This document shows positions 4,351 to 58,975 of a DNA stretch of 64,000 bases, piece after piece. This stretch comes from Phyllobates terribilis. Taxonomy: Eukaryota. The notes under the pieces are model-generated. The model did not search any database. It had not been told where the DNA came from and saw only the letters and a list, made by a program, of their open reading frames with translations. Location of the stretch: positions 206,336,001 to 206,400,000 of the forward strand of contig NW_027362772.1 of NCBI RefSeq assembly GCF_046119375.1, given 5' to 3'. Position 1 is the first letter of the stretch. Every line of letters begins with the position of its first letter. Made by a program: the position numbers and the translations under genes.

Positions 4351-5578
4351 TGTAGCACCCTGAGGATTCGGCTGCTACAGGAGTATTGCACCTCAAGCCA
4401 GAGGTGTGATATTCCACTCCCGGGTAAGGATGGAGTGTGGAACTGAGCTCGGTTAGCTGCATGCACTACATACATCCCATTTCCGAGGAGCAGACCGACG
4501 GTACTCCCACTTAGAAATGTGCAGGTACGACCGAGTCTGTTCCTGGCTGGAGTGGGAGGGGGGTGGAACATCCCATGTAGTGTAGGGGCAGATAGGGGGA
4601 GCAGCCTGGGTAAAGATAGGAGCTCATTGGGTGCTGGTCACCTGAGCTCACACATAGAGGGTGTATATAAGGTGGGCACCAACTAAGAACAGGGTCAGAT
4701 GCAGAGAACAAGTCAGATGCAGAGAACAGGTCAGTTGCAGAGAGGAAGTCAGAGAGCAGAGAAGAAAGACCCAGAGCGAGAGAGGAGAAGAGAGAGAGAG
4801 ACCCAGAGGGGGAAACAGCAGAAAAGGACTCCAAGATCCCAACTTAAATCCCCGGGTGAAGAGTCGGCGCAGGGTACCGGAACCCAAGCTGGTGGGGGGG
4901 CAAAACATACCCCAGCCAGAGACCGGAGACCGTGGGCAGCGTTTGCCACGGTCACCCACCACATCCACCCCGAAGGCACACCACATGAAGGGTCAGGGAA
5001 CCCAAGGCCAAGGGTGTCCCAACAGAAGGCCCGAGGGAGCTGGACCTAGGTGGATCACTGGTGGGGACGGCCAGAGAACGGGACAGAAGGAGAGCTCAGG
5101 GCCACGCTCCGGACTTGTTTGGGGGTTGGCTGGATCCAGGACCTGGTGGACGCAGCACGGCTCGGGTGGTCACTCGAAGCTGGAGTGACCAGTACAACAT
5201 CTGCAGTAAGTAAACACCCTTAACTGCACAACCCGACTCTGTCTTCATTGCCGTCTGCACTGCACCACCACAACCCCCATCCTCTGCACCTGTCCCCCCT
5301 GAGGCTATACCCCTCCCGTTGGGGGTTATCCCACCAAGCTGCGCACCCACCATCAGCCTCAGCGGACCCTGCTGCAGCGGCGGCCACAGTGACCGCATCA
5401 CAACGGGTGGCGTAGTCGACACAAAAGAACTCTTAATAACATCTGTAGGACTGCCACAATACAACTGAGTTTGACACCCTGGGCACGGACCGGGTCACAG
5501 CCACTCGGAAGACTACAACTCCCATCTGATCCGGCTCCGGATATTCCCCCTAAAGAATATGGCCCAGGGGGCGCGTCA
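4351..5578 (+). repeat. 5' LTR of element 1
   Basis: Direct repeat of 8097-9326 (offset 3746). TATA-like TATATAA at 4664-4670 and AGTAAA poly(A)-signal variant at 5209-5214. Confidence 0.93.
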
Positions 5579-5582
5579 ACTT

Positions 5583-5600
5583 TGGCGTAGTCGGCAGGAT
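5583..5600 (+). promoter_or_regulatory. Primer-binding site complementary to tRNA-Ser(AGA/UGA)
   Basis: TGGCGTAGTCGGCAGGAT is the reverse complement of the vertebrate tRNA-Ser 3' end ...ATCCTGCCGACTACGCCA (from memory). It lies 4 nt after the LTR end. Confidence 0.88.
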
Positions 5601-5837
5601 TACGTGCCCGCAACACCCGGGTACTGCGTGCCTGAAGAAAAGTGCAAGTTTACCTCAGAAAGAAGTCTCCCGCCGGTTCCGGAGGGTCCACGCCATCGGA
5701 CCCCATCACAGATCGTTTCCCGCCGATTGTTCGCCATTTCCAGCTTGTTCCCGCCATCTGCAGAGTTTCCCGCCACTGGGCGACGCTTCCCGCCAAATCC
5801 GAAGATTTCCCGCCTTGGAAGAGCAGCGGACGCCATT

Positions 5838-7613
5838 ATGGGCGTGCCAAAGGAGGGCAAGAGGCCGCCTCCCATCGTGGGCCAGGACAGAAAATGGCGC
5901 CAAAAGTGGAAACCGCCCCCACCAACAGAGACTGTGATGCTGGAGGTGTCTGTCAGCGTGAAAGAACTACCCCTGGAGCTGACAGTCACCGAGTTGCCCC
6001 GGGACCGCCCTCGAAGTGGGAGGAGACGAAAGAAAAGAACGAAGATGGGTGCCGCCTGGAGCAGTCTGGAGCGAGCGCACCCGGAGGCAAGAAGCCTGGA
6101 GAGGAGTCTGGAGAGAGCTTACCCGGAGATGGAGAGAAAGCAGAGCAGCACCGGCCCGCTGGCCAGGAGCCTGCTGGAAGAAGAGCAGAGCAGCACCGAC
6201 CCGTTGGTCAGGAGCCTGCTAGACACCACGACCCCACTAGGCCTAGTGGAGGTCCTTGCACAGCTCCCCCGAGACCGGGAGTGTGCACAGACTGCCCTGG
6301 AGGGCCTCGCACGGAGGATGGCCCGGGTACAGCGCGAGATATTGGCGGAATGGAGCCGGGAGATGGCCCAGCAAGCTGAGACCAGTCAACGGAGCACACT
6401 ACCCTGGAAGAGGAAACAGACCGCCTCTGAGGATGGCGCGGGAGGACCAAAGGCCGGAGACGGCGCCGAGAAGGGAGCCGGACGCAAGGAGGCAGGTAAA
6501 GGGGACGCCTATACCCCAAGCCGGGAAACCGCCCACCTGCCCCAGCTCCCCGTCGCAGAGCCCGAAAGTCCCCCTGCTGTGCCCGTAGCCGCCATGTCAC
6601 CGCTATGGACTAGGCCCCGACCGGAAGCCGCCGCAGCGACCCCTGTGACGTCACGCGCCTCGACCCGGAGCGTGACAAAGCAGGAAATACCACCAGCCTG
6701 GTCGCAAGGCCTAGTACCCCCGGGCGCCGCATCACCAACAGCGCCCCCTACCTCCGCGGAGCCTCCGGCCTGGTCGCAAGGCCAGGTAGCCCAGGGCGCC
6801 GCCGTATTAACGGTGCCCTTCACCTTCCAGGTGCCCCAGGCCTGGCCGCAAGGCCTGGGCAACCCGGGCGCCACCACCACCGCGCCCGCGCCCGTAAAAC
6901 CAAGGGTGCCACACCTGGGGGAGGACTTGTTCAGCCAGCTCACATGGCCGGACGGGCGGCCCTTCATCTGGCCCGAAGAATTCCATGAGCTGGAACGGCA
7001 GCAGAGACTAGGGCCCTTGTGTGAGCCCCTGATTCCGGCTCCGAAGCCCGTGGCACGGGTCTCGCCTCCTCTGGAAGAAGCCCAATTTGAGTGGGACCCC
7101 ACCGGAGAAGACCTAATGGGGTTCACTCAGGAAACCAGGGCAGCTGCAGCGGAGCGTGCTGAGTGTTGCCGACAGCAGCTCGAAGAGTTTGCGAGGGAGC
7201 GGAGAGAGAGGTGGGTCCGGGAACAACAGGCCCAAATAAGGAGCGCCGAGCAGAAGAGCCGAACCAGGAGGGACCCCCGTGCAGCGCACAGTCCCCGTAC
7301 CACCGGGACTGTAATAAAGTTTAACCTGCAGCATGGGTGGGGCTTCATCAGAGACAACAACACCCCCGGCGACGTCTTTGTCACGCGCAGAGACGTGGAG
7401 TCCCATCTGCCGGAGGGGCACAGAGGTCGTGACCTTTATATCGGGGACGAGGTCACCTTTACCCGGCACAAGTGTGCCAAAGGACCTTACGCCCTCCACG
7501 TACACCGCCTGACGGAGGAGGAGTTGCGGTGCGAGGAGGAGGAGCAAGAGGACCCGGACGGGTCTGAAGTTACAACCAGCTACAAGCAAAGAGCAGGAGG
7601 AAGACGCCGTTGA
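5838..7613 (+). CDS. ~591-aa protein: basic/helical N-terminus, Pro/Ala linker, EWDPTGEDLMGF motif with coiled coil, C-terminal cold-shock domain (~7302-7511)
   Basis: The frame is open from 5559 to 7613. TGTVIKFNLQHGWGFIRDNNTPGDVFVTRRDV...RDLYIGDEVTFTRHKCAKGPYALHVHRL matches the CspA/Y-box CSD pattern (RNP1 GxGFI, RNP2 DVFV, terminal KG-x-x-A-x-x-V). The start is placed at the ATG conserved in copy 2 (DAIM). Confidence 0.85.
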   Translation: MGVPKEGKRPPPIVGQDRKWRQKWKPPPPTETVMLEVSVSVKELPLELTVTELPRDRPRSGRRRKKRTKMGAAWSSLERAHPEARSLERSLERAYPEMERKQSSTGPLARSLLEEEQSSTDPLVRSLLDTTTPLGLVEVLAQLPRDRECAQTALEGLARRMARVQREILAEWSREMAQQAETSQRSTLPWKRKQTASEDGAGGPKAGDGAEKGAGRKEAGKGDAYTPSRETAHLPQLPVAEPESPPAVPVAAMSPLWTRPRPEAAAATPVTSRASTRSVTKQEIPPAWSQGLVPPGAASPTAPPTSAEPPAWSQGQVAQGAAVLTVPFTFQVPQAWPQGLGNPGATTTAPAPVKPRVPHLGEDLFSQLTWPDGRPFIWPEEFHELERQQRLGPLCEPLIPAPKPVARVSPPLEEAQFEWDPTGEDLMGFTQETRAAAAERAECCRQQLEEFARERRERWVREQQAQIRSAEQKSRTRRDPRAAHSPRTTGTVIKFNLQHGWGFIRDNNTPGDVFVTRRDVESHLPEGHRGRDLYIGDEVTFTRHKCAKGPYALHVHRLTEEELRCEEEEQEDPDGSEVTTSYKQRAGGRRR

Positions 7614-7736
7614 GTGCGGCAGAGCAGTAGATGTAAATAGTTACCCGACCGGGTACTAAAGAAACTGTTATTGCAAATATAGTCCCCGTTGGGACCAGCT
7701 GATGTGAACTGTTCACCCGTATACCCTTAATCCCAC

Positions 7737-7844
7737 AGGCTGAGGACTGTGAGCAGCCATTCCCTTTCCCTCCTTACCAGGCTGAGGACTGTGAGCAGCC
7801 ATTCCCTTTCCCTCCTTACCTGGCCAAGGACTGAGAGCGGCCAT
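7737..7844 (+). repeat. 3 tandem 42-bp units, each containing a GGCTG-N11-CAGCC-type hairpin
   Basis: GGCTGAGGACTGTGAGCAGCCAT twice plus GGCCAAGGACTGAGAGCGGCCAT; a homologous array is present in element 2. Confidence 0.8.
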
Positions 7845-8060
7845 ATCCCTGTATATAGTTGCGCTTCCTAAAGCGCCCCCTACTGGTTTTACAGGAAAAC
7901 CAGTTTTCCAGAGAGACTGTCGCACTGTACCCGGTCACACGTTGCACAGTGACCGGAGGAGGAGCCAGAGGCGACGAGAAAGTTTTATATATATAATGTT
8001 TTATATATTTTATATGTTTATGAAAAAAAATTTGTATGTTTTGGTGTTATTTATGTCTTA

Positions 8061-8096
8061 CAGCCCGAGGACGTGCTGTGATTTACCAGGGGGGAA
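8061..8096 (+). promoter_or_regulatory. Conserved pre-PPT block and polypurine tract
   Basis: CAGCCCGAGGACGTGCTGTGATTTACCAGGGGGGAA abuts the 3' LTR and is 35/36 identical to 43709-43744 in element 2. Confidence 0.85.
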
Positions 8097-9326
8097 TGTA
8101 GCACCCTGAGGATTCGGCTGCTACAGGAGTATTGCACCTCAAGCCAGAGGTGTGATATTCCACTCCCGGGTAAGGATGGAGTGTGGAACTGAGCTCGGTT
8201 AGCTGCATGCACTACATACATCCCATTTCCGAGGAGCAGACCGACGGTACTCCCACTTAGAAATGTGCAGGTACGACCGAGTCTGTTCCTGGCTGGAGTG
8301 GGAGGGGGGTGGAACATCCCATGTAGTGTAGGGGCAGATAGGGGGAGCAGCCTGGGTAAAGATAGGAGCTCATTGGGTGCTGGTCACCTGAGCTCACACA
8401 TAGAGGGTGTATATAAGGTGGGCACCAACTAAGAACAGGGTCAGATGCAGAGAACAAGTCAGATGCAGAGAACAGGTCAGTTGCAGAGAGGAAGTCAGAG
8501 AGCAGAGAAGAAAGACCCAGAGCGAGAGAGGAGAAGAGAGAGAGAGACCCAGAGGGGGAAACAGCAGAAAAGGACTCCAAGATCCCAACTTAAATCCCCG
8601 GGTGAAGAGTCGGCGCAGGGTACCGGAACCCAAGCTGGTGGGGGGGCAAAACATACCCCAGCCAGAGACCGGAGACCGTGGGCAGCGTTTGCCACGGTCA
8701 CCCACCACATCCACCCCGAAGGCACACCACATGAAGGGTCAGGGAACCCAAGGCCAAGGGTGTCCCAACAGAAGGCCCGAGGGAGCTGGACCTAGGTGGA
8801 TCACTGGTGGGGACGGCCAGAGAACGGGACAGAAGGAGAGCTCAGGGCCACGCTCCGGACTTGTTTGGGGGTTGGCTGGATCCAGGACCTGGTGGACGCA
8901 GCACGGCTCGGGTGGTCACTCGAAGCTGGAGTGACCAGTACAACATCTGCAGTAAGTAAACACCCTTAACTGCACAACCCGACTCTGTCTTCATTGCCGT
9001 CTGCACTGCACCACCACAACCCCCATCCTCTGCACCTGTCCCCTCTGAGGCTATACCCCTCCCGTTGGGGGTTATTCCACCAAGCTGCGCACCCACCATC
9101 AGCCTCAGCGGACCCTGCTGCAGCGGCGGCCACAGTGACCGCATCACAACGGGTGGCGTAGTCGACACAAAAGAACTCTTAATAACATCTGTAGGACTGC
9201 CACATAACACTGAGTTTGACGCCCTGGGCACGGGCCGGGTCACAGCCGCTCGGAGACTACAACCCCCCATCAGATCCGGTGCCGGGTATTCCCCTCAAAA
9301 AGGAATATGTCCCAGGGGGCGCGTCA
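8097..9326 (+). repeat. 3' LTR of element 1
   Basis: Near-identical to 4351-5578 except in the last ~125 bp. Confidence 0.93.
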
Positions 9327-23276: not shown

Positions 23277-23277
23277 A

Positions 23278-24410: not shown

Positions 24411-26110
24411 CTGTATGGAGTTGTTCAATAAAGGGCCCAAAATTAAGATAACATAGATGGGAGAGGTCTCTATGAATAGGAATTCCTAAGTATTTGATAC
24501 CCTGTGAGGGCCAGGCAAAGGGAAAGTTGGACTGGATGGAATCCTATATGGATTTGGGGAGGGAGACATCGAGGGCCTCAGACTTCGCTGCATTGATTTT
24601 AAAATTTGACCATGTAACAAAGTGATCTATTTCAGCCATAACAGCATGGATGGATATATGTGATTGAGTGATATATACTAGGACATCATCAGCAAATAGA
24701 GAGCACTTGTACTCGGTGCCTCCCACCTCAATCCACCTAATATTGGGGTTATGGCGAATTTATGAGAGCAGGTGCTCCGTCACTAGGATGTATAAGAGAG
24801 GGGACAGAGAACATCCCTGCCTTGTCCCATTGGTGATTGTGAAAGGTGATGAAAATGTTCTGACGCGCCCCCTGGGCCTTGGGACACCCGGAGCCGGACC
24901 CTTTTTGGTGGATGCTGGTGGTTGTAGTCTCCGTGGCGGCGACCCGGTTCGGTGGCTCAGGGCGGTCAAACCAGTGGCGGAACTATTTATGTGGTTTTGA
25001 TGTTTAAATGTCCGACTACGCCTCCCGTGGATTGCGGTCAGAGTGAACCGCCGCTCCAGGGCAGACCGCTGAGGCTGGTGTTGTGGGTGCAGCAGAGCGT
25101 AGCATAACTCCCCACGGGAGGAGTATAGCCTCAGGGCAGTGTATGCGGAGGATGGGGGTGATGGTGCAGGGCAGCAGCAGTAACGACACGGAGTCAGTGA
25201 TGCAGTCCAGGGCCTTTACTCACAGTTCTTATTATCCAGACCACGTCTGCAGGTAACGGCTGCCCACGTCGTACTGTGCTCACCAGGTGAGGGGCTCAGA
25301 CAACTCCCAGATAACTTTGGAGCGCTTCACAGGACCCCCTTTGTGTGTCCTTTGTCTGGCCTTTCTTACCAACCCTTCTGTCCGGCTGCCTCGGGCCTCC
25401 TCTTGGTAAACTTGGCGCCAGTTTCCCTGACTCTATATGGTGCCTTCCTAGCGGGTGTAGCGAGGGGCTGCGCCACATAAAATGTCACAGCCTCCTGTTT
25501 CTAGCTGAGGGTCGTTTCCTGCCTCCACTAGTTTCGGGGACCGGTCTCCCCCTTTGGCCTGACCCCTCCACGCAGGTGGATTCGGGCGTGCGGTGGCGAC
25601 TCGCCCGTCCGCACCCCTGGGATCCCTTCGTTCCTCGTTCCTGGAGCCTTCTCCGCTCCTCTTCCTTCCTTCTCCCTCTTCCAGGCCTGGGCCTCTGTTA
25701 CTAGGCCCGCCTCCGGAGCAGAGCTCATGCAGAGCCCCTGCTCCCTGCCACTTCTGCTCAGACTTCTCTGCACTGAACTAAGATGGTGCCCACCTTTTAT
25801 ACTCCCTTCTCAATGCACCCAGGAACTGCTTCCTCCCTGCTCCTGCACTACAGGGTTCCCCTTCCTCAGTGTTCCCTCCCCCCACTCCAGCCAGGGACAG
25901 GGACTGTCATGCCCATCTCAGGGGCATATTGGTCGCCCTGCCCCACGGCAATGTGGTGTAATGCATGCAGGTGTCGGGTCCTGATCCACACTACATCCTT
26001 ACCTGAGAGTGAGATATCACACCTCTGGGTGAGGTGCAATACCTCTGTAGCAACCGAGCCCTCAGGGTGCTACAGTTCCATTTATCTTCAGCCTAGGTGA
26101 CGTATTGCGA
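24411..26110 (-). mobile_element. L1/Tx1-clade LINE reverse-transcriptase fragment, split by a solo LTR
   Basis: Rejoining across 24861-26078 gives [55 protein letters not shown]. Confidence 0.85.
24861..26074 (-). mobile_element. Solo LTR of a third subfamily of the CSD-element family
   Basis: In element orientation it begins TGTAGCACCCTGAGG and ends GGCCCAGGGGGCGCGTCA, like the element 1 LTRs. 4-bp TSD GTTC (24857-24860 and 26075-26078); TATAAAAGGTGGGCACC and AGTAAA are conserved. Confidence 0.9.
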
Positions 26111-26488: not shown

Positions 26489-26610
26489 AGCTTTTTAACT
26501 GCAGCAGCTTTAGTGGACGCTACTGGAGCTGGAATTACGCGGCTGCTGGCATGAGACTTGCCCTCCAATAGATCCTTGTAAATGGATTTAAAGTGTATTC
26601 ATTCAAATTA
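26489..26610 (-). pseudogene. 18S rRNA-derived fragment (~122 bp) embedded in the hAT 3' subterminal region
   Basis: Minus strand TAATTTGAATGAATACACTTTAAATCC..GGAGGGCAAGTCTCATGCCAGCAGCCGCGTAATTCCAGCTCCAGTAGCG..GCTGCAGTTAAAAAGCT aligns with the conserved SSU segment around GTGCCAGCAGCCGCGGTAA, roughly 85-90% by eye. Confidence 0.88.
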
Positions 26611-27116
26611 GAGAGACAATTTAAATTAAAAAGCTTAGAGCTGCCTCCACCACAGGGGGGCTCGCTCGACCCACCAGCGGACAGGCACCAGTATTGGGAG
26701 AGGGGGGCTGGCCGTCAGGGTTCACCGCGGCTCTGGCACAAACCCGGCGACGCGGAGGTGGCATGGGCAGGAGCGGACTGAACGTGTCGGCTTCTCACTT
26801 TTTGGATTTTAGAAGGGCATGACATGCCTATATCTGTGTCTCCCCTTCCTTTTACTCCTCCACCTCTTTTCTTTTCGCATGACTATATGTACTTGTCACT
26901 TTTCCATGTGTTAGTTGTGTCTTCTGAGCAGTTTGTCAGCTTTTGGACACCTTTGAAGGTGTTTTCTATGTGTTTCTATGTGTTTTTGTTTGCCTGCCAT
27001 TGGTTCTAACGGTGTTCGAAGGTGTTCGACGAACAGTTCGACGAACAGTTCGGCGAACACACGGGTGTTCGACGAACTGAACCGAACTCGAACACTACGG
27101 GGGTGGCTCAACACTA

Positions 27117-29071
27117 GTTACATGTCGCTGACTGGGCACTGGGTAACTATGGTGACAGCAGGACAACGGGCTGCTGTCCAAGTCTTGCCGTCCCCACGAG
27201 TTGTGCGTCAATCCTCTTTATGTCAAAGTTCCTCCACTGCTTCTGCCTCCTCAACCTCCTCTCGGTCTTCCACCTGCACCCAAAGCCTGTCTGGTCATGC
27301 CACAAGCTTTCTAACTGCGCAGAAGGGATCCTGCACACCTCCTTACTATGCTGGCAGTAGGGCTCAACGTCATCAGGCGGTTTTTACTTTGAAATGTCTG
27401 GGAAATGTGAGTCACACAGCTGAGGAGTTGTGGTCAGCTCTGGAGAACCAATTTCATGAATGGTTGTCTCCACTGGACCTGAAACCAGGGAAGGCCGTGT
27501 GCGACAATGCTGCAAACCTGGGTGCGGCCCTTCGCCGGGGCAATGTCACACACGTGCCTTGTATGGCTCACGTGTTGAACCTGGTTGTCCAGCAATTTTT
27601 AGCCCACTATCCCAGACTAGATGGCCTTCTGCAGAGGGCACGGTCGCTGTGTGCTCACTTCCGCCGTTCGCATCCCGCAGCTCAGCGACTTACATCTCTA
27701 CAGAAGTCGTTGGGCCTGCCACTTCACCGGCTAAAATGCGATGTGCCTACCCGGTGGAATTCAACTCTGCACATGTTGCAGCGACTGTGGCAGCACCGAC
27801 AAGCCCTGGTGCAATACGTTCTGACGTATAGCCTGGGCCAACGAGATCCAGAGGTGGGGCAAATCACGCTGGAGGAGTGTTCTCAGATCAGGGACCTATG
27901 CACCCTTCTGCACAGTTTTGAAATGGCGACGAAGATGTTTAGTGCTGACGATGCCATTATCAGCATGACTATTCCGGTGATTTACATGCTGGAGCACATG
28001 TTAAACAGAATTCGGAGTCAGGTGGTGGCACAAGAGGAGGTGGAGGAAGTAGAGGAGGAGGAGTTGTATGCGGAAGGGCTAACATCTGCAAGGTCCAGAC
28101 GGTCGGCAGCACCAAGGCGGCAGGCATGTGAGGGTGGGGGAGATGGTTTTACCAGGGCGCATGGTAGCAGCCAAACTAGTGAGGAAGGTGCAGGAGCCCA
28201 GGAAGAAGTGGAGGACGAACTGATGGAAGACTCATCTGATGAGGGAGACCTTGATCACATTTCTGTTGTGCGAGGTTGGGGGGAGAGGACAGAGGAAGGA
28301 AGCATGATTGTTACCTCGCCACCAACACAACAGGGACTTGGTGCTCCTGGATGCGCAACACACATGAGTGCCTTCTTGCTGCACTACCTGCAACATGACC
28401 CTCGAATTGTGAGAATTAGAAATAATCCTGACTACTGGGTTGCCACACTGTTAGATCCCCGGTACAAAAGTAAATTTGCAGAAATTATTCCTGCCATAGA
28501 AAGGGATGCACGCATGCAGGAGTATCAGCAGAGACTGTTGCAGAATCTTACATGTGCTTTTCCACAAAATACCAGTGGTGCACATAGTGAAACTCACAGT
28601 TCCAACTTGCCAACCGTGGGACCGTCAAGTGTTCAGCACTCAAACCGTAACAGAACCACAGTATCTGCTGGTAACATCAATTTTGCGGAATCATTTCACC
28701 ACTTTTTTAGCCCATCCTTTGCAAGGCCACAGGAGACAAGAAGTCTGACACATAGTCAACGCCTAGAGACGATGGTACAGGAGTATCTCCAAGTAAACAT
28801 TGAAGCCATGACTGTGTCACTGGACCCTTGCTCTTTTTGGGCTTCCAATCTGGATAAATGGCCGGAGCTAGCCACTTACGCCTTGGAGATCTTGTCATGC
28901 ACCGCAGCCAGCGTTCTGTCTGAACGTGTGTTCAGCGCTGCTGGTGGTGTGCTGACAGATAAGCGCACGCGGCTCTCCACTGATAATGTAGACAGACTCA
29001 CGTTCATAAAGATGAACAAATCATGGATCCGAAATGACTTTTCTACCCCTGTGTCATCCTGGGGAGAGTAA
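27117..29071 (+). pseudogene. hAT transposase, C-terminal half (catalytic core and hATC dimerisation domain)
   Basis: 650 open codons from YMSLTGHW, including VCDNAANL, PCMAHVLNL, CDVPTRWNSTLHML, LDPRYK and SERVFSAAG..RTRLSTDNV. Preceded directly by an internal hAT right TIR ending at 27116. Confidence 0.92.
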
Positions 29072-29109: not shown

Positions 29110-29388
29110 TTAAGCTTTCAAATTACTAATCATGTTTATCTGTATCTTGGCTGGAAAATAATTTGGGCTTTGTAGCAGTGTGCAGCACTGATTCTATTAG
29201 GCCATCTATAATAAGCTCCACCAGATTTAAAATTACTAATCATGTTTATCTGTATCTTGACTGGAAAATAATTTGGGCTTTGTAGCAGTGTGCAGCACTG
29301 ATCCTATTAGGCCATCTATACTAAGCTTCACCAGATTTAAAATTAATAATAATTTTTAGCTGCATCTAGCCCGGAAAATAATTTTGGG
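29110..29388. repeat. ~2.5 copies of a 110-bp unit related to the upstream satellite
   Basis: TAATCATGTTTATC at 29127 and 29237. The shared blocks CTATTAG.CCATCTATA, TGCATCTAGC and ATTTGGGCTT..TAGCAGTGTG also occur in 18977-21460. Confidence 0.8.
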
Positions 29389-29506
29389 GCTCCGAGATGC
29401 GCAAGACACATAAGTGCCTTCTTGCTGCACTACCTGCAACATGACCCTCATATTGTCAGAATTCGAAGTAATCATGACTACTGGGTTGCCACACTCTTAG
29501 ATCCCC
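29389..29506 (+). pseudogene. Fragment of a second, paralogous hAT transposase
   Basis: Encodes ..LLHYLQHDPHIVRIRSNHDYWVATLLDP, paralogous to ~28350-28460. Its continuation (CATGTGCTTTTCCACAAAAC..CCAACCGTGG) resumes after the Tc1 TA site at 30883-30952 and 24341-24410. Confidence 0.75.
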
Positions 29507-30880
29507 CAAACTTTTCGATCAACCTTTTCATTTTAATAAAGACCAAAAAAATGGTCATTTTTGAAATTATAAGCATTAGCAGGTTATTAGAAACTGAAAT
29601 CAAACAGTTTTCAACTCAAAACTTTATTCTAGGTGATGTTACATTTTCACATAGGACCCCTTGTTCGAAAGGAGCTTCTGAACTCTCTCGTCCATTGAAT
29701 TTGTCAGGTTTTGAATGGTTTCTGCTTCAATTGTTTTGCATGAGGACAGAATACCCTCCCAGAGCTGTTGCTTAGATGTGAACTGCCTCCCGCCATCATA
29801 GACACTCCATTTGATGATGCTCCAGAGGTTCTGAATGGGGTAGAGGTCAGGGGAGCATGGGGGTCACACCATAAGTTTGTCCCCTTTTATGCCCATATCA
29901 GCCAGAGATGCAGATGTTTTATGTGCAGCATGAGATGGTGCATTATCATGCAAAAAAATGATCTTGCTGTGAAATACACGGTTCTTCTTCTTGAACCATG
30001 GCAGGAAGTGCTGTTTGAGAAAATCCACATACATTATGGAGTTCATCTTTAGCGCCTTCAGGGATCCTAAAGGGGCCGACAATCTCTCTCCCCATGATTC
30101 CAGCCCAAAACATTACTCCACCTCCTCCTTGTTGGCGCTGTAGCCGTGTTTGCGTGGGGTGTCCATCAACCAGCCATCCTCCACTCCATACATCTGGGCC
30201 ATCGAGCGCTGCACGGCACTCATCCGTGAACAAAACAGTTTTGAAATCAGTCTTCATGTAATGTTTGGCCCACTGGAGCCGTTTCTGCTTGTGTGAAGTG
30301 GATAGAGGAGGTCGACAGGATGGCGTATGCACAGCTGCAAACCTCTGAAGGACCCTGCATCTTGTTGTTCGGGGGACGTTGGAGGCACCAGCAGCTTCAA
30401 AAACTTGTCTGCTGCTATGACAAGGCTTTTTTGCCGCTGCTCTTTTAACCTGACGTAATTGCCTGTAGGAAAGAGTCCTCAATTTGCCCTTATCAGCACG
30501 CACACGTGTGTACTGTGAATCAGCTACATACTTCTTGATTGCCAAGACACTTCATCCTGATCATCGCACAATGTTGATTGTAGTCATGCCTTGACCTAAA
30601 CACTCCACAATTTGTTGCTTCTCAGCAGCCGACACGTCCTTTTTCTTTCCCATTTTGGCAGAAAATGTAGGCTGCTTAATAATGTGAGACAGCCTTCTTA
30701 AGTAGTCTTGCCTTTCATTGGACACACCTGCCAAACTAATTAGCACAGGTGTCTGCAATTGCTTACAGTGATATAAAGAGCCCTGACACACATCACCATC
30801 AATGAGTTTAACTGACAAACAAACAAATTCTTCCCTTATCACTCCTAAACACTTTTTGCATAATAATTTGGAACACAGTG
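29507..30880 (-). mobile_element. DD37E (TRT-type) Tc1 element, copy 2 (degraded CDS ~30653-29639; other TIR lost)
   Basis: Same as copy 1 at offset 6542, but extends to the C-terminus ..NKGSYVKM*. Confidence 0.85.
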
Positions 30881-30952
30881 TACATGTGCTTTTCCACAAA
30901 ACACCAGTGGTTCACGTAGTGAATCTTACAGTTCTAACTTGCCAACCGTGGT

Positions 30953-32652
30953 CTGTATGGAGTTGTTCAATAAAGGGCCCAAAATTAAGATAACATAGAT
31001 GGGAGAGGTCTCTATGAATAGGAATTCCTAAGTATTTGATACCCTGTGAGGGCCAGGCAAAGGGAAAGTTGGACTGGATGGAATCCTGTATGGATTTGGG
31101 GAGGGAGACATCGAGGGCCTCAGACGTCGCCGCATTGATTTTAAAATTTGACCATGTAACAAAATGATCTATTTCAGCCATAACAGCATGGATGGATATA
31201 TGTGATTGAGTGATATATACTAGGACATCATCAGCAAATAGAGAGCACTTGTACTAGGTGCCTCCCACCTCAATCCACCTAATATTGGGGTTATGGCGAA
31301 TTGATGAGAGCAGGTGCTCCGTCACTAGGATGTATAAGAGAGGGGACAGAGGACATCCCTGCCTTGTCCCATTGGTGATTGTGAAAGGTGATGAAAATGT
31401 TCTGATGCACCCCCTGGGCCTTGGGACACCCGGAGCCGGACCCTTTTTGGTGGATGCTGGTGGTTGTAGTCTTCGTGACGGCGACCCGGTTCCGTGGCTC
31501 AGGGTGGTCAAACCAGTGGCGGAACTATTTATGTGGTTTTGATGTTTAAATGTCAGACTACGCCACCCGTGGATTGCGGTCAGAGTGAACCGCCGCTGCA
31601 GGGCAGACCGCTGAGGCTGGTGTTATGGGTGCAGCAGAGCGTAGCATAACTCCCCACGGGAGGAGTATAGCCTCAGGGCAGTGTATGCGGAGGATGGGGG
31701 TGATGGTGCAGGGCAGCAGCAGTAACGACACGGAGTCAGTGATGCAGTCCAGGGCCTTTACTCACAGTTCTTATTATCCAGACCACGTCTGCAGGTAACG
31801 GCTGCCCACGTCGTACTGTGCTCACCAGGTGAGGGGCTCAGACAACTCTCAGATAACTTTGGAGCGCTTCACAGGACCCCCTTTGTGTGTCCTTTGTCTG
31901 GCCTTTCTTACCAACCCTTCTGTCCGGCTGCCTCGGGCCTCCTCTTGGTAAACTTGGCGCCAGTTTCCCTGACCCTATGTGGTGCCTTCCTAGCGGGTGT
32001 AGCGAGGGGCTGCGCCACATAAAATGTCACAGCCTCCGGTTTCTAGCTGAGGGTCGTTTCCTGCCTCCACTAGTTTCGGGGACCGGTCTCCCCCTTTGGC
32101 CTGACCCCTCCACGCAGGTGGATTCGGGCGTGCGGTGGCGACTCGCCCGTCCGCACCCCTGGGATCCCTTCATTCCTTGTTCCTGGAGCCTTCTCCGCTC
32201 CTCTTCCTTCCTTCTCCCTCTTCCAGGCCTGGGCCTCTGTTACTAGGCCCGCCTCCGGAGCAGAGCTCATGCAGAGCCCCTGCTCCCTGCCACTTCTGCT
32301 CAGACTTCTCTGCACTGAACTAAGATGGTGCCCACCTTTTATACTGCCTTCTCAAAGCACCCAGGAACTACTTCCTCCCTGCTCCTGCACTACAGGGTTC
32401 CCCTTCCTCAGTGTTCCCTCCCCCCACTCCAGCCAGGGACAGGGACTGTCGTGCCCATCTCAGAGGCATATTGGTCGCCCTGCCCCACGGCAATGTGGTG
32501 TAATGCATGCAGGTGTCGGGTCCTGATCCACACTCCATCCTTACCTGAGAGTGAGATATCACACCTCTGGGTGAGGTGCAATACCTCTGTAGCAAACGAG
32601 CCCTCAGGGTGCTACAGTTCCATTTATCTTCAGCCTAGGTGACGTATTGTGA
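30953..32652 (-). mobile_element. Duplicate L1 RT fragment
   Basis: Copy of 24411-26110 at offset 6542; [18 protein letters not shown]. Confidence 0.85.
31403..32616 (-). mobile_element. Duplicate solo LTR (same insertion site and TSD GTTC)
   Basis: Its flanks match those of 24861-26074, so it arose by segmental copying rather than independent insertion. Confidence 0.9.
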
Positions 32653-33030
32653 TACAGGGCCGTGATTTTGGCTATGAAAGGGTCACCTAGACCCCTACCC
32701 CAAGCTTTTTAAGAGAATCATATCTGGCGTGCCAGGAGACTCTATGGAATGCTTTCTCAGCATCCAACGAGAGTATCTAATTACAAATTTTTAACTGCAT
32801 CTAGCCCAGGAAATACTTTGTGCCTAGTAGCAGTGTCTGCTAGTCAGCGGATTATCCCGGCTGTTAAGCAAGCTACACCACCTGTAGTTTGGACACTTAA
32901 TTTTTTCAAAGGAAATGCTTCGGGACCACGGGATACTCAGTGAAGAGCATCAGGAGGCACCCCAAGGCATAGGGGCTGGGACTGGCAGTAGGATGCCTTG
33001 CGGTGGACAGCCGAGCTCGATCCTTATAAA

Positions 33031-33152
33031 AGCTTTTTAACTGCAGCAGCTTTAGTGGACGCTACTGGAGCTGGAATTACGCGGCTGCTGGCATGAGACT
33101 TGCCCTCCAATAGATCCTTGTAAATGGATTTAAAGTGTATTCATTCAAATTA
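33031..33152 (-). pseudogene. Second copy of the 18S rRNA-derived fragment
   Basis: Copy of 26489-26610 at offset 6542. Confidence 0.88.
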
Positions 33153-33787
33153 GAGAGACCATTTAAATTAAAAAGCTTAGAGCTGCCTCCACCACAGGGG
33201 GGCTCGCTCGACCCACCAGCGGACAGGCACCAGTATTGGGAGAGGGGGGCTGGCCGTCAGGGTTCACCGCGGCTCTGGCACAAACCCGGCGACACGGAGG
33301 TGGCACGGGCAGGAGCGGACTCAACGTGTCGGCTTCTCACTTTTTGGATTTTAGAAGGGCATGACATGCCTATATCTGTGTCTCCTCCTCCTTTTACTCC
33401 TCCACCTCTTTTATTTTCGCATGACTATATGTACTTGTCACTTTTCCATGTGTTAGTTGTGTCTTCTGAGCAGTTTGTCAGCTTTTGGACACCTTTGAAG
33501 GTGTTTTCTATGTGTTTCTATGTGTTTTTGTTTGCCTGCCATTGGTTTTAACGGTGTTCGAAGGTGTTCGACGAACAGTTCGACGAACAGTTTGGCGAAC
33601 ATACGGGTGTTTGACAAACCGAACCGAACTCGAACACTACGGGGGTGGCTCAACACTAATTGTGTTGTTATTAAATAACAATGCATCTTCAAGTTAGCAT
33701 TAAATATTTGCAAAAATCTAAATGAACTAAATATTTAAAGAGTCCCCTTATTTTAGTTTTTTTTATATTCTTGATATGTCTTTTTAA

Positions 33788-38980: not shown

Positions 38981-40808
38981 TTAAACTTCTCATAGCAAGG
39001 ACATACTTCTTGTTACATCTTCCTCTAATAACTTTTAGTATTCCTAAAAAAAAGTAACACAACTGAAATCTGCTGAAGGCATGATAACTATTTAGCTCTG
39101 AAATAAGAATGTATAAATTTCACTTTGCAAACACATATCACAGAGACAGAAGTTATGGTATTCTGTACAACTGCACTTCACTAGCAGTGACCGTGATTAG
39201 GTTTAATTCAGTAGTGTTTGCAATGCAGGTTTGTACCCATAGCAAACACTGATAAGCAATATAACAAGTCAACCAGGTTTTTTTTGCGTGGGCCAATACA
39301 AACTGTTCAGTCCTCATACAAATATGGCCAGTCCGCAGACTGCCCTCATCACGTCCTCCTGTTGTGTATGTAAGGGGCACAGGGTGGTAGTAGTGGCGAG
39401 GGGCTTTTGTTCTCCCAAACCCTGGCCTCCCACAAAGAATAGATAATGTCCTGTCTGTCGTCTGGTTTGGGAGTATTGAACAAAGCTCTCGTTTTCACGT
39501 TTGTAACTGCAGTTCCTGCTTGTCCCACTGTCCTGGCTCTGCATGAGACCACACATTCATGCACAGACTCGATATTCATCTTTAACAATCCAACTTTACT
39601 TGATAACAAAGAATCCATGGCAGTTTCAGTACAGCACTTGTCTGTTTTTTTACAGCCTGAGCTTTCTCTCTCAATGCTGACCCCTCTGGTCTCCTAGATG
39701 CTCTTCCTGGCTCTGCATTCTCAATGCTTTTAGGCCCACTTTCCTGTTCTGGTTCCCCTCCTGCTCCCCTTGCTGGGAGATGTAACAGGCACTCGTGTCC
39801 ATACCTGATTCGGGCTGTAGGCCCCGGATTTTTATGGAGATACCACTGAACGTAGTGGCGGCTGTATGCATTCTGCTTTTCTTGAGTCCCATGCTTTCTG
39901 TACTGTTTGGCCCACTGGCCTATTCTGCCTTCTCCAAGTTCCCTCTCCAGCACAAGCTTATCGTTGCAATATTATACTCCACACTCTACATTCTATATCC
40001 CACTACCAGGAAATAAATACTCCCCTTTTTATAAACTTGCTACCCCTCTCATCTGGGAAATTCCCTAAACACAGTAACTATTAACCTTCCCCTTACTGTA
40101 TGTAACTAACAACTCATCTCCTAAACTACAGTGCCCCCCCCACTGTGCTTCCCAATCCTAATTGCAGCTATTTCCTTATCTTACTTTTATGTCTAAATTG
40201 TAGTTTTTACCCTAATCTGATTACAGTATCAAAACATGCATACGTATGTACATGGGTTATACACAATAAAACCGCTGTTAAAACATGCAAAACCGCACAC
40301 AGAGTATTAGACACATCATTGTACATAAACCATTATCAATGCATAAAACATTATTCAAATTTCCATAACCAAGTGTACCTGTTTTACTAGGAAGGGATGA
40401 AGGACATGAATCGACCCTGACATACATGTATACAGAGGATGATTCTTTTTTAGACAACATAAAAAGGTGCAATAAACATTTACTGATTCATTGGCAGATC
40501 GCTGCCCTGTTTACGGTGCCCAGTGATTGGGAACATTTATTTAATAGCCAATTATCAGCCAGTATAAAAAGGCCTATAAACATAGGCAAATAAGAGAGCT
40601 GCCGGCAAACTGAAGCACCGACCAAAATAATGCCATGTATGCTTATACTGGTTGGGTGTACATGTTTAATACCCTATACATATGGACTATAGTACGTATC
40701 TCCCTGCATACTAAACTTGTCAGACATATTGAAATCCATGGTCAGACTTTCCCTATACAAGTCATATCATTGCTAGGATCTGGCTATTATTATCTCCTAT
40801 TAGTGATG

Positions 40809-41303
40809 TGTAGCGCCCCGAGGGTTCGGTTGCTACAGGGGTATTGCACCTCAACCAGAGGTGTGATATTCCACTCCCGGGTAAGGATGGAGTATGGACC
40901 AGGGCTCAGTAGCTGCATACACACACTCACCCCATTTCCGGGGGACAGCTCGACGGTGCTCTCATTTAAATGCAGGCACAACTGACCATGTCCCTGGCTA
41001 GAGTTCGGAGGGGGGAGAGAACCCAGTGATGTAGGAGCAGAAGGGGATGGTTTCTGGAGCATAGGAAGGAGCTCATTGGGTGCAGGTCACCTGAGCTCAG
41101 ACACAGAGAGGCAGATAAAAGGTGGGAGCCATCTTTAGAGAGGGGTTCAGTACAGTGGAGAGGTGACAGGGAGCAGAGGCTCTGTAGGACTGCCACAGCA
41201 TTTGGTCTGACCACCCTGAGCCGCGGGATCGGGTTGCCACTACTACCCCCATCATCGCACTGAAGCCCGGTTCCGGGTGCCCCACGGCCCAGGGGGCGAG
41301 TCA
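40809..41303 (+). repeat. 5' LTR of element 2, carrying a 755-bp internal deletion
   Basis: Matches 43745-44125 and 44881-44994; the segment 44126-44880 is absent. Confidence 0.9.
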
Positions 41304-41307
41304 GCTT

Positions 41308-41325
41308 TGGCGTAGTCGGCAGGAT
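41308..41325 (+). promoter_or_regulatory. PBS, tRNA-Ser(AGA/UGA)
   Basis: TGGCGTAGTCGGCAGGAT, identical to the PBS of element 1. Confidence 0.88.
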
Positions 41326-41421
41326 TGTGACCAACCCAACACAAACGGGTATTGCATGCCTGAAAAGAGACTGTTTCACTGTATTGAAAATGGCGCCCGC
41401 CCCAGAAGAACAGACGCCATA

Positions 41422-42940
41422 ATGTGCGCGCCAAAAGATAACAAGAAGCCACCTCCCATCGTGGGCCAGGTCCCAGAATGGCGCCAAAGAAGGAGCCCAC
41501 CCCCAACAGCCATGAGTGCGGCTGTAGAGATGTCCATCAAGGTGGGGGGGCTGCCCCTGAGAGTGATTGTCAGCAGATTGCCCCAGGAGCACCCACAACA
41601 GGGGCGGAAAGAGAAGAAAACCGAGGGGCAGGGTGTGGTTTGGATCAGTCTCGCCAGACCACACCCGGAGATGGAGAGGAGCGTCAACTCCAGCACCCTG
41701 GCAAGCGGCCTGCTGCAGGCCGAGTCTCCATACAGCCTCACGGAGCTGTTGGCTCAGCTCCCCGCAGAAGACCCTGAGTTCTTGCGGACTGCGCTGGAGG
41801 AGCTGGACCGGAGGATGGTCCGAGCGCAGAAGGACGTCATCGCCGGGTGGAAAGAGGAGATGGCCCGGCGGGTCGCGACCCGGCAGCAAGAGACGCTGCC
41901 AGCACCCGGCGGCACGCCTGCCCCCGAGGACGGAGAGAGGAGACCGGAGGCAGAGAACAGCGCTGCCGCGGAGGCAGGTAAGGAAGACACCCCTGCCTCG
42001 GGTCCTGACACCGAAGGCTTACCCCTGGATCCCGCCGTGGAGCCAGAAGTCCTGGGAGCCGCTGCAGCTTCCACGCTCCCACCGCCGGTACGTAGGCCCC
42101 AAGCCGCGAACACCACTGTTGAACCACGCCCCACGTCGTGCCCCCTGACCCCGGAGGCGGTCGGAAGCAGCCCGCTCCAGGCCCGGTCGCAAGGCCTGAC
42201 CACCCCAGGCGCCTCCCAACCGGGTGTGCCCCCGGTCTAGAAACCACCACCCCTGGGCGCGGACCTGTATGCCCAACTGTCTGGTCCAGATGGAGAGCCA
42301 GTCCCCGTACCAGAGGGATGAGTGCACCCCAGTCTGCGGAAAAGCCTGCCCGCGGAGGCCGGAGCTCCTCTGCTTTCACTCCCACCTGACCCACGGCCTG
42401 TTGAAGTTCCCCAGCTCCCGGTGGAGGAGGTCCAATATGAGTGGGACCCGACAGGAGAGGACCTCATGGGGTTCTCGCAGGAGACACGGGCGACCGCAGC
42501 CCGCAGACGGGAGTTCTGTTACCGACAGGTGGCGCAGTTCGAGCGGGAGAAGCGGACACGGCGACAGAGGCAGGAACAGCTGCAGGCCCGAAGCGCGGAG
42601 CTGAAGATGCGCGTCCGGCAAGACCCCCAGGCTGCGCGCGGTCCCAGAATCATCGGGACCGTAGTCAAGTTCCAGCACGACCACGGACACGGATGTGTTC
42701 GTTACCCGGAGAGACGTGGAGAGCCACCTGCCGAAAGGCCACCCGGAACGGGATCTGTCTCCAGGAGACTTGATGTCCTACACCTGACACCGAGGCCTAA
42801 AAGGATGGTATGCCCTTCATGTCCAGAGGATAAGAGAGGAGCAGCACCCCGAACCAGAACCCGGATACCAAGAGGACCCGGACGGGTCTGAAGATCAGTA
42901 TGAGGAGGAGGGAGGAGCAACAGGAGGATACCACTACTAA
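41422..42940 (+). pseudogene. Disrupted homolog of the CSD ORF
   Basis: Collinear with 5838-7613 (PPPIVGQ, LAQLP..TALEEL.RRM, EWDPTGEDLMGF, GTVVKF, DVFVTRRDVESHLP, ALHV, QEDPDGSE). In-frame stops at 42238 and 42319, a frameshifting deletion through RNP1 near 42690, and a stop inside the CSD. Confidence 0.88.
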
Positions 42941-43037
42941 TGAGCAAGTGTGAGTAGTTACCCGACAGGGTACAAGGAACTGTTTTTGTTGCCCCCGTTG
43001 GGACTGTTGCCCGTTCGAAGCTAACCCCCAAGTCACC

Positions 43038-43173
43038 TGGCTGAGGACTGAGAGCAGCCATCCCTCTTCCCCACCTGGCTGAGGACTGAGAGCAGCCATC
43101 CCTCTTCCCCACCTGGCTGAGGACTGAGAGCGGCCATTCCCCTTTCCCATCCGGCCGAGAACTGGGAGCGGCC
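43038..43173 (+). repeat. 4 tandem ~38-bp hairpin units
   Basis: TGGCTG-N11-CAGCCA twice, TGGCTG-N11-CGGCCA, and CGGCCG-N11-CGGCCG. Confidence 0.8.
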
Positions 43174-43744
43174 GACCCCTATGGGTGGTTGCGCTTCTTG
43201 GAGCGCCCCCTATTGGTTTTATAAGGGTACTGCAGCGTCTACCTCTGGACAAAAGCTCATTTGGCGGGGCCGAAAATGTGGTCCAACTACCGGATCACCT
43301 ATGCCCTGCAGCCACGCCCAGGGCCTACGTTGGAAGTTTACGAGCGGGTCCCTCATGTTTGAAAGTTTGCTGAAGTTTTGCACCTTACTGAAAAAAAAAA
43401 ATGGACACCTGGTCGCAAGTTGCACAGTGGCCAGTGAAGAAGAGAATTTACTTAAAAAAATGTCTTACCTGAAAAGTTTTATATGCTGCTAAAAGAGTTA
43501 CATAATAGTGAAAATGTTGTTGGTAAAAGAAGTTCCGGTAATATTAAAAATGCCTTATAATGTCTAGTAAAGAAAAGTGTTGGAAAAGAGAAAGTGTTTC
43601 CCATAAAGGAAATTGCATAATGTCGGCCGTTTTCTAATGTAAAAAAAAAAAAAGTTTGAGAAAGTTTTGCATGTCTTGCATGTTTTTGAATTGTCTTTTG
43701 CTCTGTTCCAGCCCGAGGACGTGCTGTGGTTTACCAGGGGGGAA

Positions 43745-44994
43745 TGTAGCGCCCCGAGGGTTCGGTTGCTACAGGGGTATTGCACCTCAACCAGAGGTGT
43801 GAAATTCCACTCCCGGGTAATGATGGAGTATGGACCAGGGCTCAGTAGCTGCATACACACACTCACCCCATTTCCGGGGGACAGCTCGACGGTGCTCCCA
43901 TTTAAATGCAGGCACAACTGACCATGTCCCTGGCTGGAGTGGGGAGGGGGGAGAGAACTCAGTGATGTAGGAGCAGAAGGGGATGGTTTCTGGAGCATAG
44001 GAAGGAGCTCATTGGGTGCCGGTCACCTGAGCTCAGACACAGAGAGGCAGATAAAAGGTGGGAGCCATCTTTAGAGAGGGGTTCAGTACAGTGGAGAGGT
44101 GACAGGGAGCCGAGGCTTTGTAGGAGCTCTGCCCAGAAGGCAGGCCTGGAGAGAAGGCCGGGGCCAGAGAGGAGAAGAGGAGAAGGAAGGAAAGAGGAGA
44201 GACAGAGGAGTAGAAAGGCTCCAGAAACAAGAAGGCAGAAGGGACCCTAAGAGAGAGCAGAACGGACAGCAACGGTTGCAACCCGCGTTATATCGGGTGA
44301 AGGGTCAGGCTATAGAAAGGTACCGGATTCCCAAGTTGGTGGAGGTAAATTATCCCTCAGCCAAGAACCAGAGGTCGTGATCATCTATTGGTGCGACCCC
44401 CCGCCAAACCTGCTGGGAAGGCACCATATAGGATAGCGGGAAACGGGGGCCAACGTTTGCCCGCAAAGATCCGCGGTAGCTGGACAGAAGTTTGGTCACT
44501 GGTGGGGCACGAGAGGCCAGAGAAAGGACAGAAGGGAGTCCTGCGCCATACTCCTGAATTGCCTGGGGGTTGACCGAGCCCCTTACCTGGTGGACGCAGC
44601 ACGGCTTGGGCAGTCATTGCTGACAGAAGTGACATGGATAACAACTGTGAGTAAAAACCCTGGACTGCATCATTGGACTCTGAGTGATTTCTGCTGCGCC
44701 TGCACCATCACCCCCAGCATCCACCTACATTGCCCTGAGGCTACACTCTTCCCGGTTGGAGTTATCCTATCCCTGTGCTGCCCACCAACACCAGCCTCAG
44801 TGGTCTGCCTTGCAGCGGCGGTCATCCCTGACCGCAATCCACGGGTGGCGTAGTCGGACATTCATAACTCTACAAATAGACTGCCACAGCATTTGGTCTG
44901 ACCACCCTGAGCCGCGGGATCGGGTTGCCACTACTACCCCCATCATCGCACTGAAGCCCGGTTCTGGGTGCCCCACGGCCCAGGGGGCGAGTCA
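43745..44994 (+). repeat. 3' LTR of element 2 (1250 bp)
   Basis: Follows the PPT; contains GATAAAAGGTGGG, AGTAAA and a U5 TGGCGTAGTCGG; ends GGCCCAGGGGGCGAGTCA. Confidence 0.92.
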
Positions 44995-46159
44995 GATGAG
45001 CGAGCATGCTCATTACTCAAGATTTACAAGCATGCTCAGGTGTTTTCCTAGTATCTTCAGCGTGCTCAGGTGTTATGTTTTCATCACTCAGTGCTCACGA
45101 TTTGCGACTGTTTGACAGCTTTAAAACACGTGAGGAATGCCTGTTTCTTAGGCATTCCTCACATGTATTAAAGCTGTCAAACAGTAGCAAATCATGAGCA
45201 CTGAGTGATGAAAACATAACACAGAGCACCACTGAAGATACTCGGCGAGCACGCGAACATGCTCGCCGAAAGGGTTAACAGAACATACTCGCCCATCACT
45301 ATCTCCTATGTATGTATGGCCATCATTGCTGTCTCCCTATCAATTAATCTTTGGGTTGCCATGCACTGTAAATGAGTTGATATGTCCAAGAAAGGTAAAG
45401 GATCCAGCTGCCAGTATAAATAAAAAGCATAAAATTGTATTTAATCCATTAAAAAGTGAAAAAGTATACATACTTTGCAAAAGGTTGAAGTGAATACCCT
45501 CCATAAAACCCAATATGTTTATATGAAATACCAGGACTTAGAATGCTGTAGCGCTCGAAACACATTGGTTATATAATCCTTCCAAAGATCATAAATGATA
45601 AGTATACACTATACAGTGTTCGCACGTCAGGCACACATGGGAAGCACTTCAGATGTAATGTAATGTGCCAGTTCCTTCATGTACTCCTGTTGAAAAAAAA
45701 GAGAGATCTTCAGTTTACTTTGCATTTTCATTATGTTTCAGAAGAGTGGCCATAAATGAAGAAGGTGGCCTATTGGCTTATCCGAGCAGATCATTGCATA
45801 AAAACAAGTAGTAGAAGTTTCAATTAAAAACCGGTTTATTTCAATGTCTATTAAAAAATCAGCACGGCAGGATGGCAAGACATCTGTTTGACGTATTTCG
45901 ATTATTCGGTCTTAACCATACTTCATACCCTCCTCACAGATGTGTCACAGTACTATGTAGTAACAGCCTGCCCCTCGATGACAGTACGAGCATTACTATA
46001 TATGACGAGCCCCTTTTCAGCCACCCAAGTCTCCATTTAATTCCATCTCCAAATCTGACGTCGTAATTGTGAAGGGTTTGATTACAGTGATCATCTCCTT
46101 CTTTGTGTATTGCTTCCTAATAAATGTGCTCTATATTTTAAAGAAATGTTTAGTTCTAG

Positions 46160-58954: not shown

Positions 58955-58957
58955 GTT

Positions 58958-58975
58958 TGGCGTCACGAACAGGAT
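58958..58975 (+). promoter_or_regulatory. PBS complementary to tRNA-Ser(CGA)
   Basis: TGGCGTCACGAACAGGAT is the reverse complement of ...ATCCTGTTCGTGACGCCA, a vertebrate tRNA-Ser(CGA) 3' end (from memory). Confidence 0.82.

Follow-up and report, generated by a model that had tools for sequence, protein, structure and literature searches.

A cold-shock-domain gene under purifying selection in gag-less, pol-less LTR retrotransposons of the poison frog Phyllobates terribilis

The stretch of DNA considered here, termed the window, is 64,000 nts of the Phyllobates terribilis genome (assembly GCF_046119375.1, contig NW_027362772.1, positions 206,336,001 to 206,400,000 of the forward strand). It harbours two long terminal repeat (LTR) retrotransposons, element 1 of lineage A and element 2 of lineage B, each with one open reading frame (ORF) for a protein whose C-terminal cold-shock domain (CSD) is preceded by an EWDP motif and a helix. 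Selection on this EWDP-CSD module is real beyond reasonable doubt, and on the CSD it is as strong as on reverse transcriptase (RT). Neither gag nor pol was found inside the CSD-type elements, whether the two in the window or 40 others sampled, and shared ends together with exchange of U5 sequence point to mobilisation in trans by the Gag-Pol of partner elements.

The two elements

Each element is bounded by TG...CA LTRs, flanked by a 4-bp target duplication and equipped with a polypurine tract, and the primer site is the same in both (Table 1). While the ORF of element 1 is unbroken, that of element 2 is interrupted by three stops (42238, 42319 and 42785), and its CSD has a 29-nt gap at 42677|42678. 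The LTR pairs differ at 15 of 1226 bases (element 1) and at 11 of 496 aligned bases (element 2). With the rate available from bioRxiv 10.1101/2023.11.06.565769, the differences translate to rough insertion ages of ~2 and ~4 million years.

Table 1. Coordinates, within the window, of the CSD-type elements, their parts and a related solo LTR
Feature	Position	Strand	Remarks
Element 1 (A lineage)	4351..9326	+	LTRs 4351-5578 and 8097-9326; GATA target duplication
Element 1 ORF	5838..7613	+	unbroken, 591 codons; C-terminal CSD
Element 1 ORF, parts in order		+	N-terminal part; helical domain 6228-6437; Pro/Ala linker; EWDP-helix 7074-7298; CSD 7299-7508; acidic tail
Element 2 (B lineage)	40809..44994	+	GATG target duplication at 40805-40808 and 44995-44998
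Element 2 5' LTR (TG...CA)	40809..41303	+	~755-nt internal deletion relative to its own 3' LTR
Inverted repeat with ATTGG (CCAAT/Y-box-like) core	41069..41098	+	second copy 44005-44034; upstream of TATA-like site
Element 2 primer-binding site	41308..41325	+	identical to that of gag-pol helpers
Element 2 decayed CSD ORF	41422..42940	+	ATG 41422; TAA 42938-42940
Element 2 EWDPTGEDLMGF block	42439..42492	+	predicted unstructured linear motif running into 45-residue helix; ratio of nonsynonymous to synonymous substitution rates (dN/dS) 0.096
Element 2 CSD	42652..42829	+	disrupted by gap and one stop
Element 2 polypurine tract	43736..43744	+	
Element 2 3' LTR	43745..44994	+	
Solo LTR, third related lineage	24859..26079	-	~69% identical to element 2 LTR; duplicated at 31401-32621

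Several smaller features accompany the elements. A second motif resembling the primer site lies within the U5 of each LTR (5408, 9154, 44846). The primer-binding site itself we take to be that of tRNA-Ser, which a search for this tRNA did not confirm: none was called at the 4 loci examined among 36 matches to the primer-site pattern in all. The inverted repeat with the ATTGG core is present also in both LTRs of element 1, and looks like a nuclear-receptor half-site pair as well. In both lineages a splice-donor-like site directly follows the stop codon (~42945-42960) and an acceptor-like site directly precedes the polypurine tract (43695-43715), so an intron in the 3' untranslated region (UTR) is possible; contigs of four sequencing runs of uncertain type cover the element and are uninformative on transcription or splicing. 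The same UTR has ~40-nt tandem repeats (43040-43170; 7738-7850) that are 77% conserved at the DNA level between A and B and are a candidate cis element. Repeated TTCCCGCCA units in the 5' leader (5700-5820, and the leaders L193 and L153), found in A-lineage and helper elements and mostly absent from lineage B, are a candidate packaging signal.

Selection on the open reading frame

The original prediction, which was made from the letters alone, had drawn attention to the block EWDPTGEDLMGF(T/S)QETRA (7089-7142 versus 42439-42492), and its count was reproduced: 9 of the 18 codons are identical in the two elements, 8 differ synonymously and one changes Thr to Ser. With the synonymous share taken as 0.30, 8 or more synonymous changes in 9 changed codons would arise with a binomial probability of 4e-4. 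However, the block was picked by eye and it is therefore the tests on many copies that carry the weight. The motif order was also said to be conserved along the whole ORF, and alignment of both copies agrees.

A codon likelihood model was used, in code of our own that was checked against the leader, other frames and helper genes only. One set held 36 unbroken natural copies, after removal of one duplicate locus and one misaligned leader. The other held 35 of the 36 position-picked copies offered, broken ones included and those with less than 70% occupancy removed. The first copy sets had been picked by protein score, and distant lineages lie outside the dN/dS sets. For the pairwise comparison of A with B, duplicates and copies shorter than 300 codons were removed.

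In the unbroken copies, dN/dS is 0.094 for the CSD, 0.175 for the EWDP-helix and 0.096 for the 18-codon block, and it is 0.27 for the LGEDL region, 0.35 for the helical domain, 0.45 for the tail and 0.57 for the Pro/Ala linker, the in-frame 5' leader serving as control with 0.97. The linker has thus diverged as first described, yet under moderate selection. For codons 1-86 the ratio is 0.62, and on internal branches 0.80, which is no different from 1 (p=0.22). Position-picked copies give 0.085 for the CSD and 0.166 for the EWDP-helix (0.068 and 0.127 on internal branches); the two remaining sense frames of this DNA give 2.3 and 3.8. The corresponding values for 29 helper elements are 0.073 for RT, 0.090 for integrase and 0.14 for Gag. 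A consensus-level ratio near 1 across the ORF, set beforehand as a result that would speak against selection, was not found for the module. Purifying selection, originally claimed for the ORF as a whole, is strong for the CSD and EWDP-helix. In the acidic tail and in codons 1-85 synonymous divergence is low, and the ratio, internal or net, is not clearly below 1.

Could an overlapping RNA element be responsible for the conservation? Four-fold-site identity between A and B is 0.32 in the CSD and 0.34 in the EWDP-helix, and third positions are the most diverged within the module. With four-fold sites there near saturation, such an element is not the explanation for the module. In the first 85 codons and the tail the identities are 0.73 and 0.90, respectively, and conservation of these parts is likely due in part to the DNA or RNA level, with an overlapping RNA element there. 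One CSD serine is encoded by TCN in 24, and by AGC in 7, of 32 copies.

The stops and frameshift of element 2 had been ascribed to decay after insertion, and this holds. Element 2 has 2 private changes that are synonymous and 8 that are nonsynonymous. Across 26 old copies of B type, private changes (102 synonymous, 254 nonsynonymous; dN/dS 0.87-1.13) are neutral, whereas the states shared in the same copies (79 synonymous, 70 nonsynonymous) are not. Stops are spread over 31 positions in 37 B-type copies, none of them in more than 3 copies. Indels that are multiples of three make up 50 of 107 events in the ORF versus 74 of 239 in the UTR, counts rendered unusable by alignment artefacts in repeats.

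The encoded protein

The element 1 ORF matches PF00313 with 34.1 bits (E 2.6e-8; curated cut-off 27) and an unbroken B-type copy does so with 29.2 bits. Pfam gives the CSD only: no CCHC zinc knuckle or Gag domain was found in the ORF and no Gag similarity of its protein was detected (helper Gag has weak PNMA, Retrotrans_gag and zf-CCHC scores). In the structure model, built on 24 natural sequences, the EWDP motif is of low confidence; it is followed by a 45-residue helix and a confident, five-stranded CSD barrel with a predicted local distance difference test (pLDDT) value >90. Comparison of the modelled domain with CspA gives a template-modelling (TM) score of 0.90 with a root-mean-square deviation (rmsd) of 1.8, and with CRHSP-24 a Z of 11.1 and an rmsd of 2.4 with 80 aligned; YBX1/2 and LIN28 also match. 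RNP1 GWGF and VFV vary little or not at all among the 24 sequences, and the CSD would be expected to bind single-stranded nucleic acid. Its loop length is YB-1-like, but the scores against YB-1 (33.4 bits) and bacterial Csp (31.5 bits) are almost equal, and so favour neither clearly as the donor of the domain.

As first noted, the helix module upstream of the CSD is without a name: it has no Pfam or named match. FEWD or YEWD forms its core in lineages A and B, with the Trp and Asp nearly invariant and the residue before the Trp varying. This core resembles the LEWD-type W-acidic motif (hydrophobic-acidic-Trp-acidic), which according to the text available of PMC9365671 binds the TPR domain of kinesin light chain; the resemblance is a lead only. 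A modelled complex of the EWDP-CSD module with helper Gag reached 0.29 against a mark of 0.34, which is no evidence either way. On whether the N-terminal helical domain has a capsid fold, profiles are shallow, the model is of low confidence and the best Z, 5.7, is among generic helices; Atlas, Foldseek and VIA gave no usable match to this domain. The C-terminal module meets only CSD clusters in Atlas (<0.9), and in the viral fold library only the CSDs of phages and giant viruses.

The closest named protein is from Phyllobates terribilis itself (86%), and relatives in the poison frogs Ranitomeya and Anomaloglossus are uncharacterised proteins of 41-54% identity. Apart from one unnamed protein, all close relatives from a full HMMER search are of poison frogs, but with repeat-masked annotation this does not show absence elsewhere. 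Word-index protein searches returned only P0001, only the query, or no match, the last one covering 962-2745 residues only. Proteins P0078 and P0151 have a related but distinct CSD with another upstream helix, and possibly stem from another such element in a different organism.

The family and its gag-pol partners

In the 10.6 Gb genome, the exact junction of LTR end and primer site occurs 42,034 times and a degenerate CSD motif 22,915 times, with 0 in the control for each. The latter is consistent with half of the junctions, and the family has about 20,000 copies. The first 80 junctions by position, all within the first 17 Mb of one chromosome, comprise 40 elements of CSD type, 37 of gag-pol Ty3/gypsy type (some truncated) and 3 that are unclear. 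The gag-pol type has gag, zinc knuckle included, and PR-RT-RH-IN; a profile search found the CSD module in none of its 37 internal regions. The CSD type has an internal region mostly of 2.4-2.6 kb with one ORF, which is unbroken in 28 of the 40 copies and across the family is 510-700 codons long. A 3' LTR is present in 37 of the 40, and in 32 of these it is at least 99% identical to the 5' LTR (median identity 99.6%), as against 18 of 30 gag-pol elements. Since LTR pairs are near-identical while ORF proteins are only 53-96% identical to that of element 1, nearly all differences between copies arose in transposing lineages and not after insertion. Target duplications of 4 bp flank 29 of 32 scored copies, and most target sites have the form G-NNNN-C, which amounts to a weak preference for palindromes. 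Some copies 3.6-3.8 kb apart (C2:442.64 Mb, C13:92.93 Mb and others) are tandem elements with a common LTR.

Lineage B was originally described as a second divergent subfamily. It is not only that: searches started from two distant frog proteins led to further lineages in LTR elements, several of which use a different primer site, and the family is a continuum. The distant lineages retain the layout of W-D, GxLxGF, helix and CSD.

CSD-type and gag-pol elements have the same LTR end and the same primer site. Beyond this, their shared sequence is confined to ~280-360 nt of U5 and a further ~60 nt following the primer site, with identities of up to 90%; U3 differs, as does the stretch leading up to the polypurine tract. 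A tree built from the final 300 LTR bases (42 CSD and 37 gag-pol rows, a few with interrupted LTRs) interleaves the types with 9 label changes, 7 of them forced by strong branches, and a single CSD clade is rejected (p-AU, the approximately unbiased test, 4e-51). Repeated template switching in shared particles would account for the interleaved U5.

Possible role of the protein

The CSD element is a non-autonomous Ty3/gypsy-type LTR element. We lean, by a little, towards its being copied by co-resident Gag-Pol, with a protein that binds and favours the RNA encoding it. The satellite RNA would be co-packaged with helper RNA in Gag-Pol particles. Its ORF would be translated in germ-line cells, and the new protein would coat its own mRNA (cis preference) as a private Y-box protein. 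Such coating may stabilise or mask that RNA, or deliver it to the particles of the helper, while the EWDP motif and helix would dock on a protein partner. Since Gag-Pol acts in trans, retention of a satellite gene would require that it benefit its own RNA or that of close kin; cis preference would thus explain why lineages keep the gene. Host YB-1 aids HIV RNA metabolism and virion output (PMC6040738, text available), and poison-frog ova show high expression of gypsy elements (PMC6278860, likewise). A more elaborate version is tentative: a two-part poison-frog system in which a satellite LTR element gave up gag and pol and gained a Y-box-like CSD which, with the docking motif (possibly for kinesin), acts as cis RNA chaperone and germ-line delivery factor, the satellite now matching its helper in number and helping to drive genome gigantism.

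Several observations weigh against cis preference, or limit what can be concluded. The module has been lost in 4 of the 40 sampled copies, each at a different junction, and two CSD-less junction types are present at 274 and 61 genomic sites. Nine of 10 examined copies of the second type are in one subfamily; with this clustering short bursts without the CSD are possible, and the CSD would not be strictly needed in cis. The beta-1 Trp and RNP2 His of YB-1 and Csp, which are RNA-contact positions, are replaced by Lys and by Thr or Asn, so nucleic-acid binding may be weaker or different. Net A-B dN/dS is 0.87-1.2 for the first 85 codons and ~1 for the tail, values that are rough only since pairwise dS saturates in the module. 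Copies recombine, which violates the single-tree codon model, and dN/dS cannot separate cis from trans action, nor RNA from DNA binding.

The first junction type bears on the same issue. In the 10 copies examined, flanks differ on both sides (median 0.905 and 0.878), and the deleted copies are dispersed over several subfamilies of unbroken ones (5 changes), each of them near an unbroken copy. Occurring on several backgrounds, this deletion arises repeatedly, between short direct repeats, as would be expected of one that founds no lasting lineage. Loss of the module during reverse transcription is after packaging and hence compatible with a cis role. The built-in deletion variants are a natural test of cis preference. 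The earlier proposal that the protein aided transmission of its own elements is accordingly supported, as judged from selection, with the qualification that copies without the module also insert.

An alternative, unlikely in our estimation, is that of a trans-acting activator or anti-silencer. Its target would be the ATTGG repeat of its own LTR, either the DNA or, in the 3' U3, the RNA; binding would raise transcription, or shield transcripts from PIWI-interacting RNA (piRNA) silencing, and kin sharing the LTR would gain. Y-box proteins do bind ATTGG boxes. The inverted repeat is retained in ~25 of 29 LTR variants, one of its pairs covaries via a G-U state (T-A 15, C-G 7, T-G 5), and the U3 stretch scanned in 23 gag-pol elements lacks ATTGG in each of them. 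The hundreds of CSD-less copies that retain the LTR also fit action in trans. A diffusible product should, however, let defective copies win, and what is observed is selection at the level of RT and a main deletion that is polyphyletic. One covarying pair is weak evidence, and ATTGG upstream of a TATA box is also an ordinary NF-Y site.

Less probable again is a competition factor that binds helper RNA or Gag and diverts packaging or translation toward satellite RNA. CSD elements equal or exceed the helpers in number (40 versus 37) and are younger by the LTR identities given above, and module turnover is fast with a common U5, all of which it would explain, but no result points to helper RNA as target and a shorter RNA could by itself confer the advantage. 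Host selection, with a few source loci encoding a protein useful to the frog and the copies as by-products, is improbable. Relatives are annotated as genes in three poison-frog genera, and there is a precedent in Xenopus, where embryonic expression is described for pol-less LTR elements and an effect on development for xretpos (PMC4585706, text available); against it, the many young lineages, inserted at scattered sites, all have low dN/dS on internal branches, and decay is neutral in each copy once inserted. That conservation is an artefact of an overlapping RNA element, codon bias or choice of good copies, partly true of the first 85 codons and tail and suggested too by sets first chosen by protein score, can be set aside for the EWDP-CSD module, where it is already refuted, given the diverged third positions, the same values in position-picked copies, the leader ratio and the lack of any Rfam match in element 2.

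Relation to known elements and proteins

With autonomous Ty3/gypsy elements the CSD elements share paired TG...CA LTRs, the 4-bp target duplication, primer site and polypurine tract, but they are without gag and PR-RT-RH-IN pol. TRIM and LARD elements (Cassandra) likewise have LTRs, primer site and polypurine tract, no gag-pol, and ends common with an autonomous partner. In the text available, however, such elements are described as non-coding (bioRxiv 10.64898/2026.03.01.708851), whereas the CSD family encodes an ORF of 510-700 codons with a domain under RT-level selection. TR-GAG and Xenopus 1a11/xretpos (the latter also from a frog) are pol-less LTR elements with one long ORF. As described in the available part of PMC4585706, where the word 'cold' has no match, the protein of 1a11 is Gag-like and its ORF exists in tens of copies; the CSD family has no zinc knuckle, no detected Gag similarity and ~20,000 copies, and is set apart from it by that description. 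Additional ORFs of LTR retrotransposons are also conserved and thought to aid transposition (PMC7264820 and PMC6338049, text available), but they adjoin gag-pol in one element, while the element that carries the CSD gene is a separate one and has a U3 of its own. Neither source names a cold-shock domain in that text, the term having been searched in PMC6338049 only.

The protein shares with the Y-box proteins YBX1/2 and with CspA the CSD fold, the RNP1 motif, a loop of YB-1 length and an Ala/Pro-rich stretch before the CSD. Members of the YBX1-3 family have a near-identical CSD, with the beta-1 Trp and RNP2 His, and then a long charged tail. At ~32-36% identity, with both residues replaced, no long charged C-terminal tail and a new EWDP-helix ahead, the ORF protein falls outside that family. 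Hepatitis delta virus is a helper-dependent replicon with its own RNA-binding protein; the CSD element is instead an integrated retrotransposon that would borrow capsid and enzymes, and the likeness is an analogy only.

No description of a CSD-encoding LTR element was found in the literature searched, with supplements, Repbase and Dfam outside the search; 'cold shock' had 0 matches in the main text of the frog genome or transposable-element papers searched. The family may be listed in Repbase or Dfam as an unclassified or Gypsy repeat. Non-autonomous LTR elements have been taken as non-coding passengers or keepers of gag, but this family keeps a host-type RNA-binding domain instead, and an element probably mobilised in trans can sustain selection on its own accessory gene. 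At ~5 kb each, ~20,000 copies amount arithmetically to near 100 Mb. The family may account for part of the large 'unknown' LTR fraction in poison-frog genomes, put at 66,046 elements in the accessible text of bioRxiv 10.1101/2023.11.06.565769. CSD 'genes' in frog annotations are flagged as possible transposon products.

Other features of the window

The third-lineage solo LTR is carried by a Tc1-like element that is present in duplicate (3.9 kb, 98.4%; 23259-27119 and 29800-33661) and nested in a hAT-like transposase, family names being by inspection. A tandem array of 110-bp units occupies 18976-21484, with related copies at 29113-29400. At 58007-63445 there is a gag-pol gypsy relative of the helpers (Gag ~43%, RT ~72%). 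It carries the alternative primer site, as used by distant CSD lineages.
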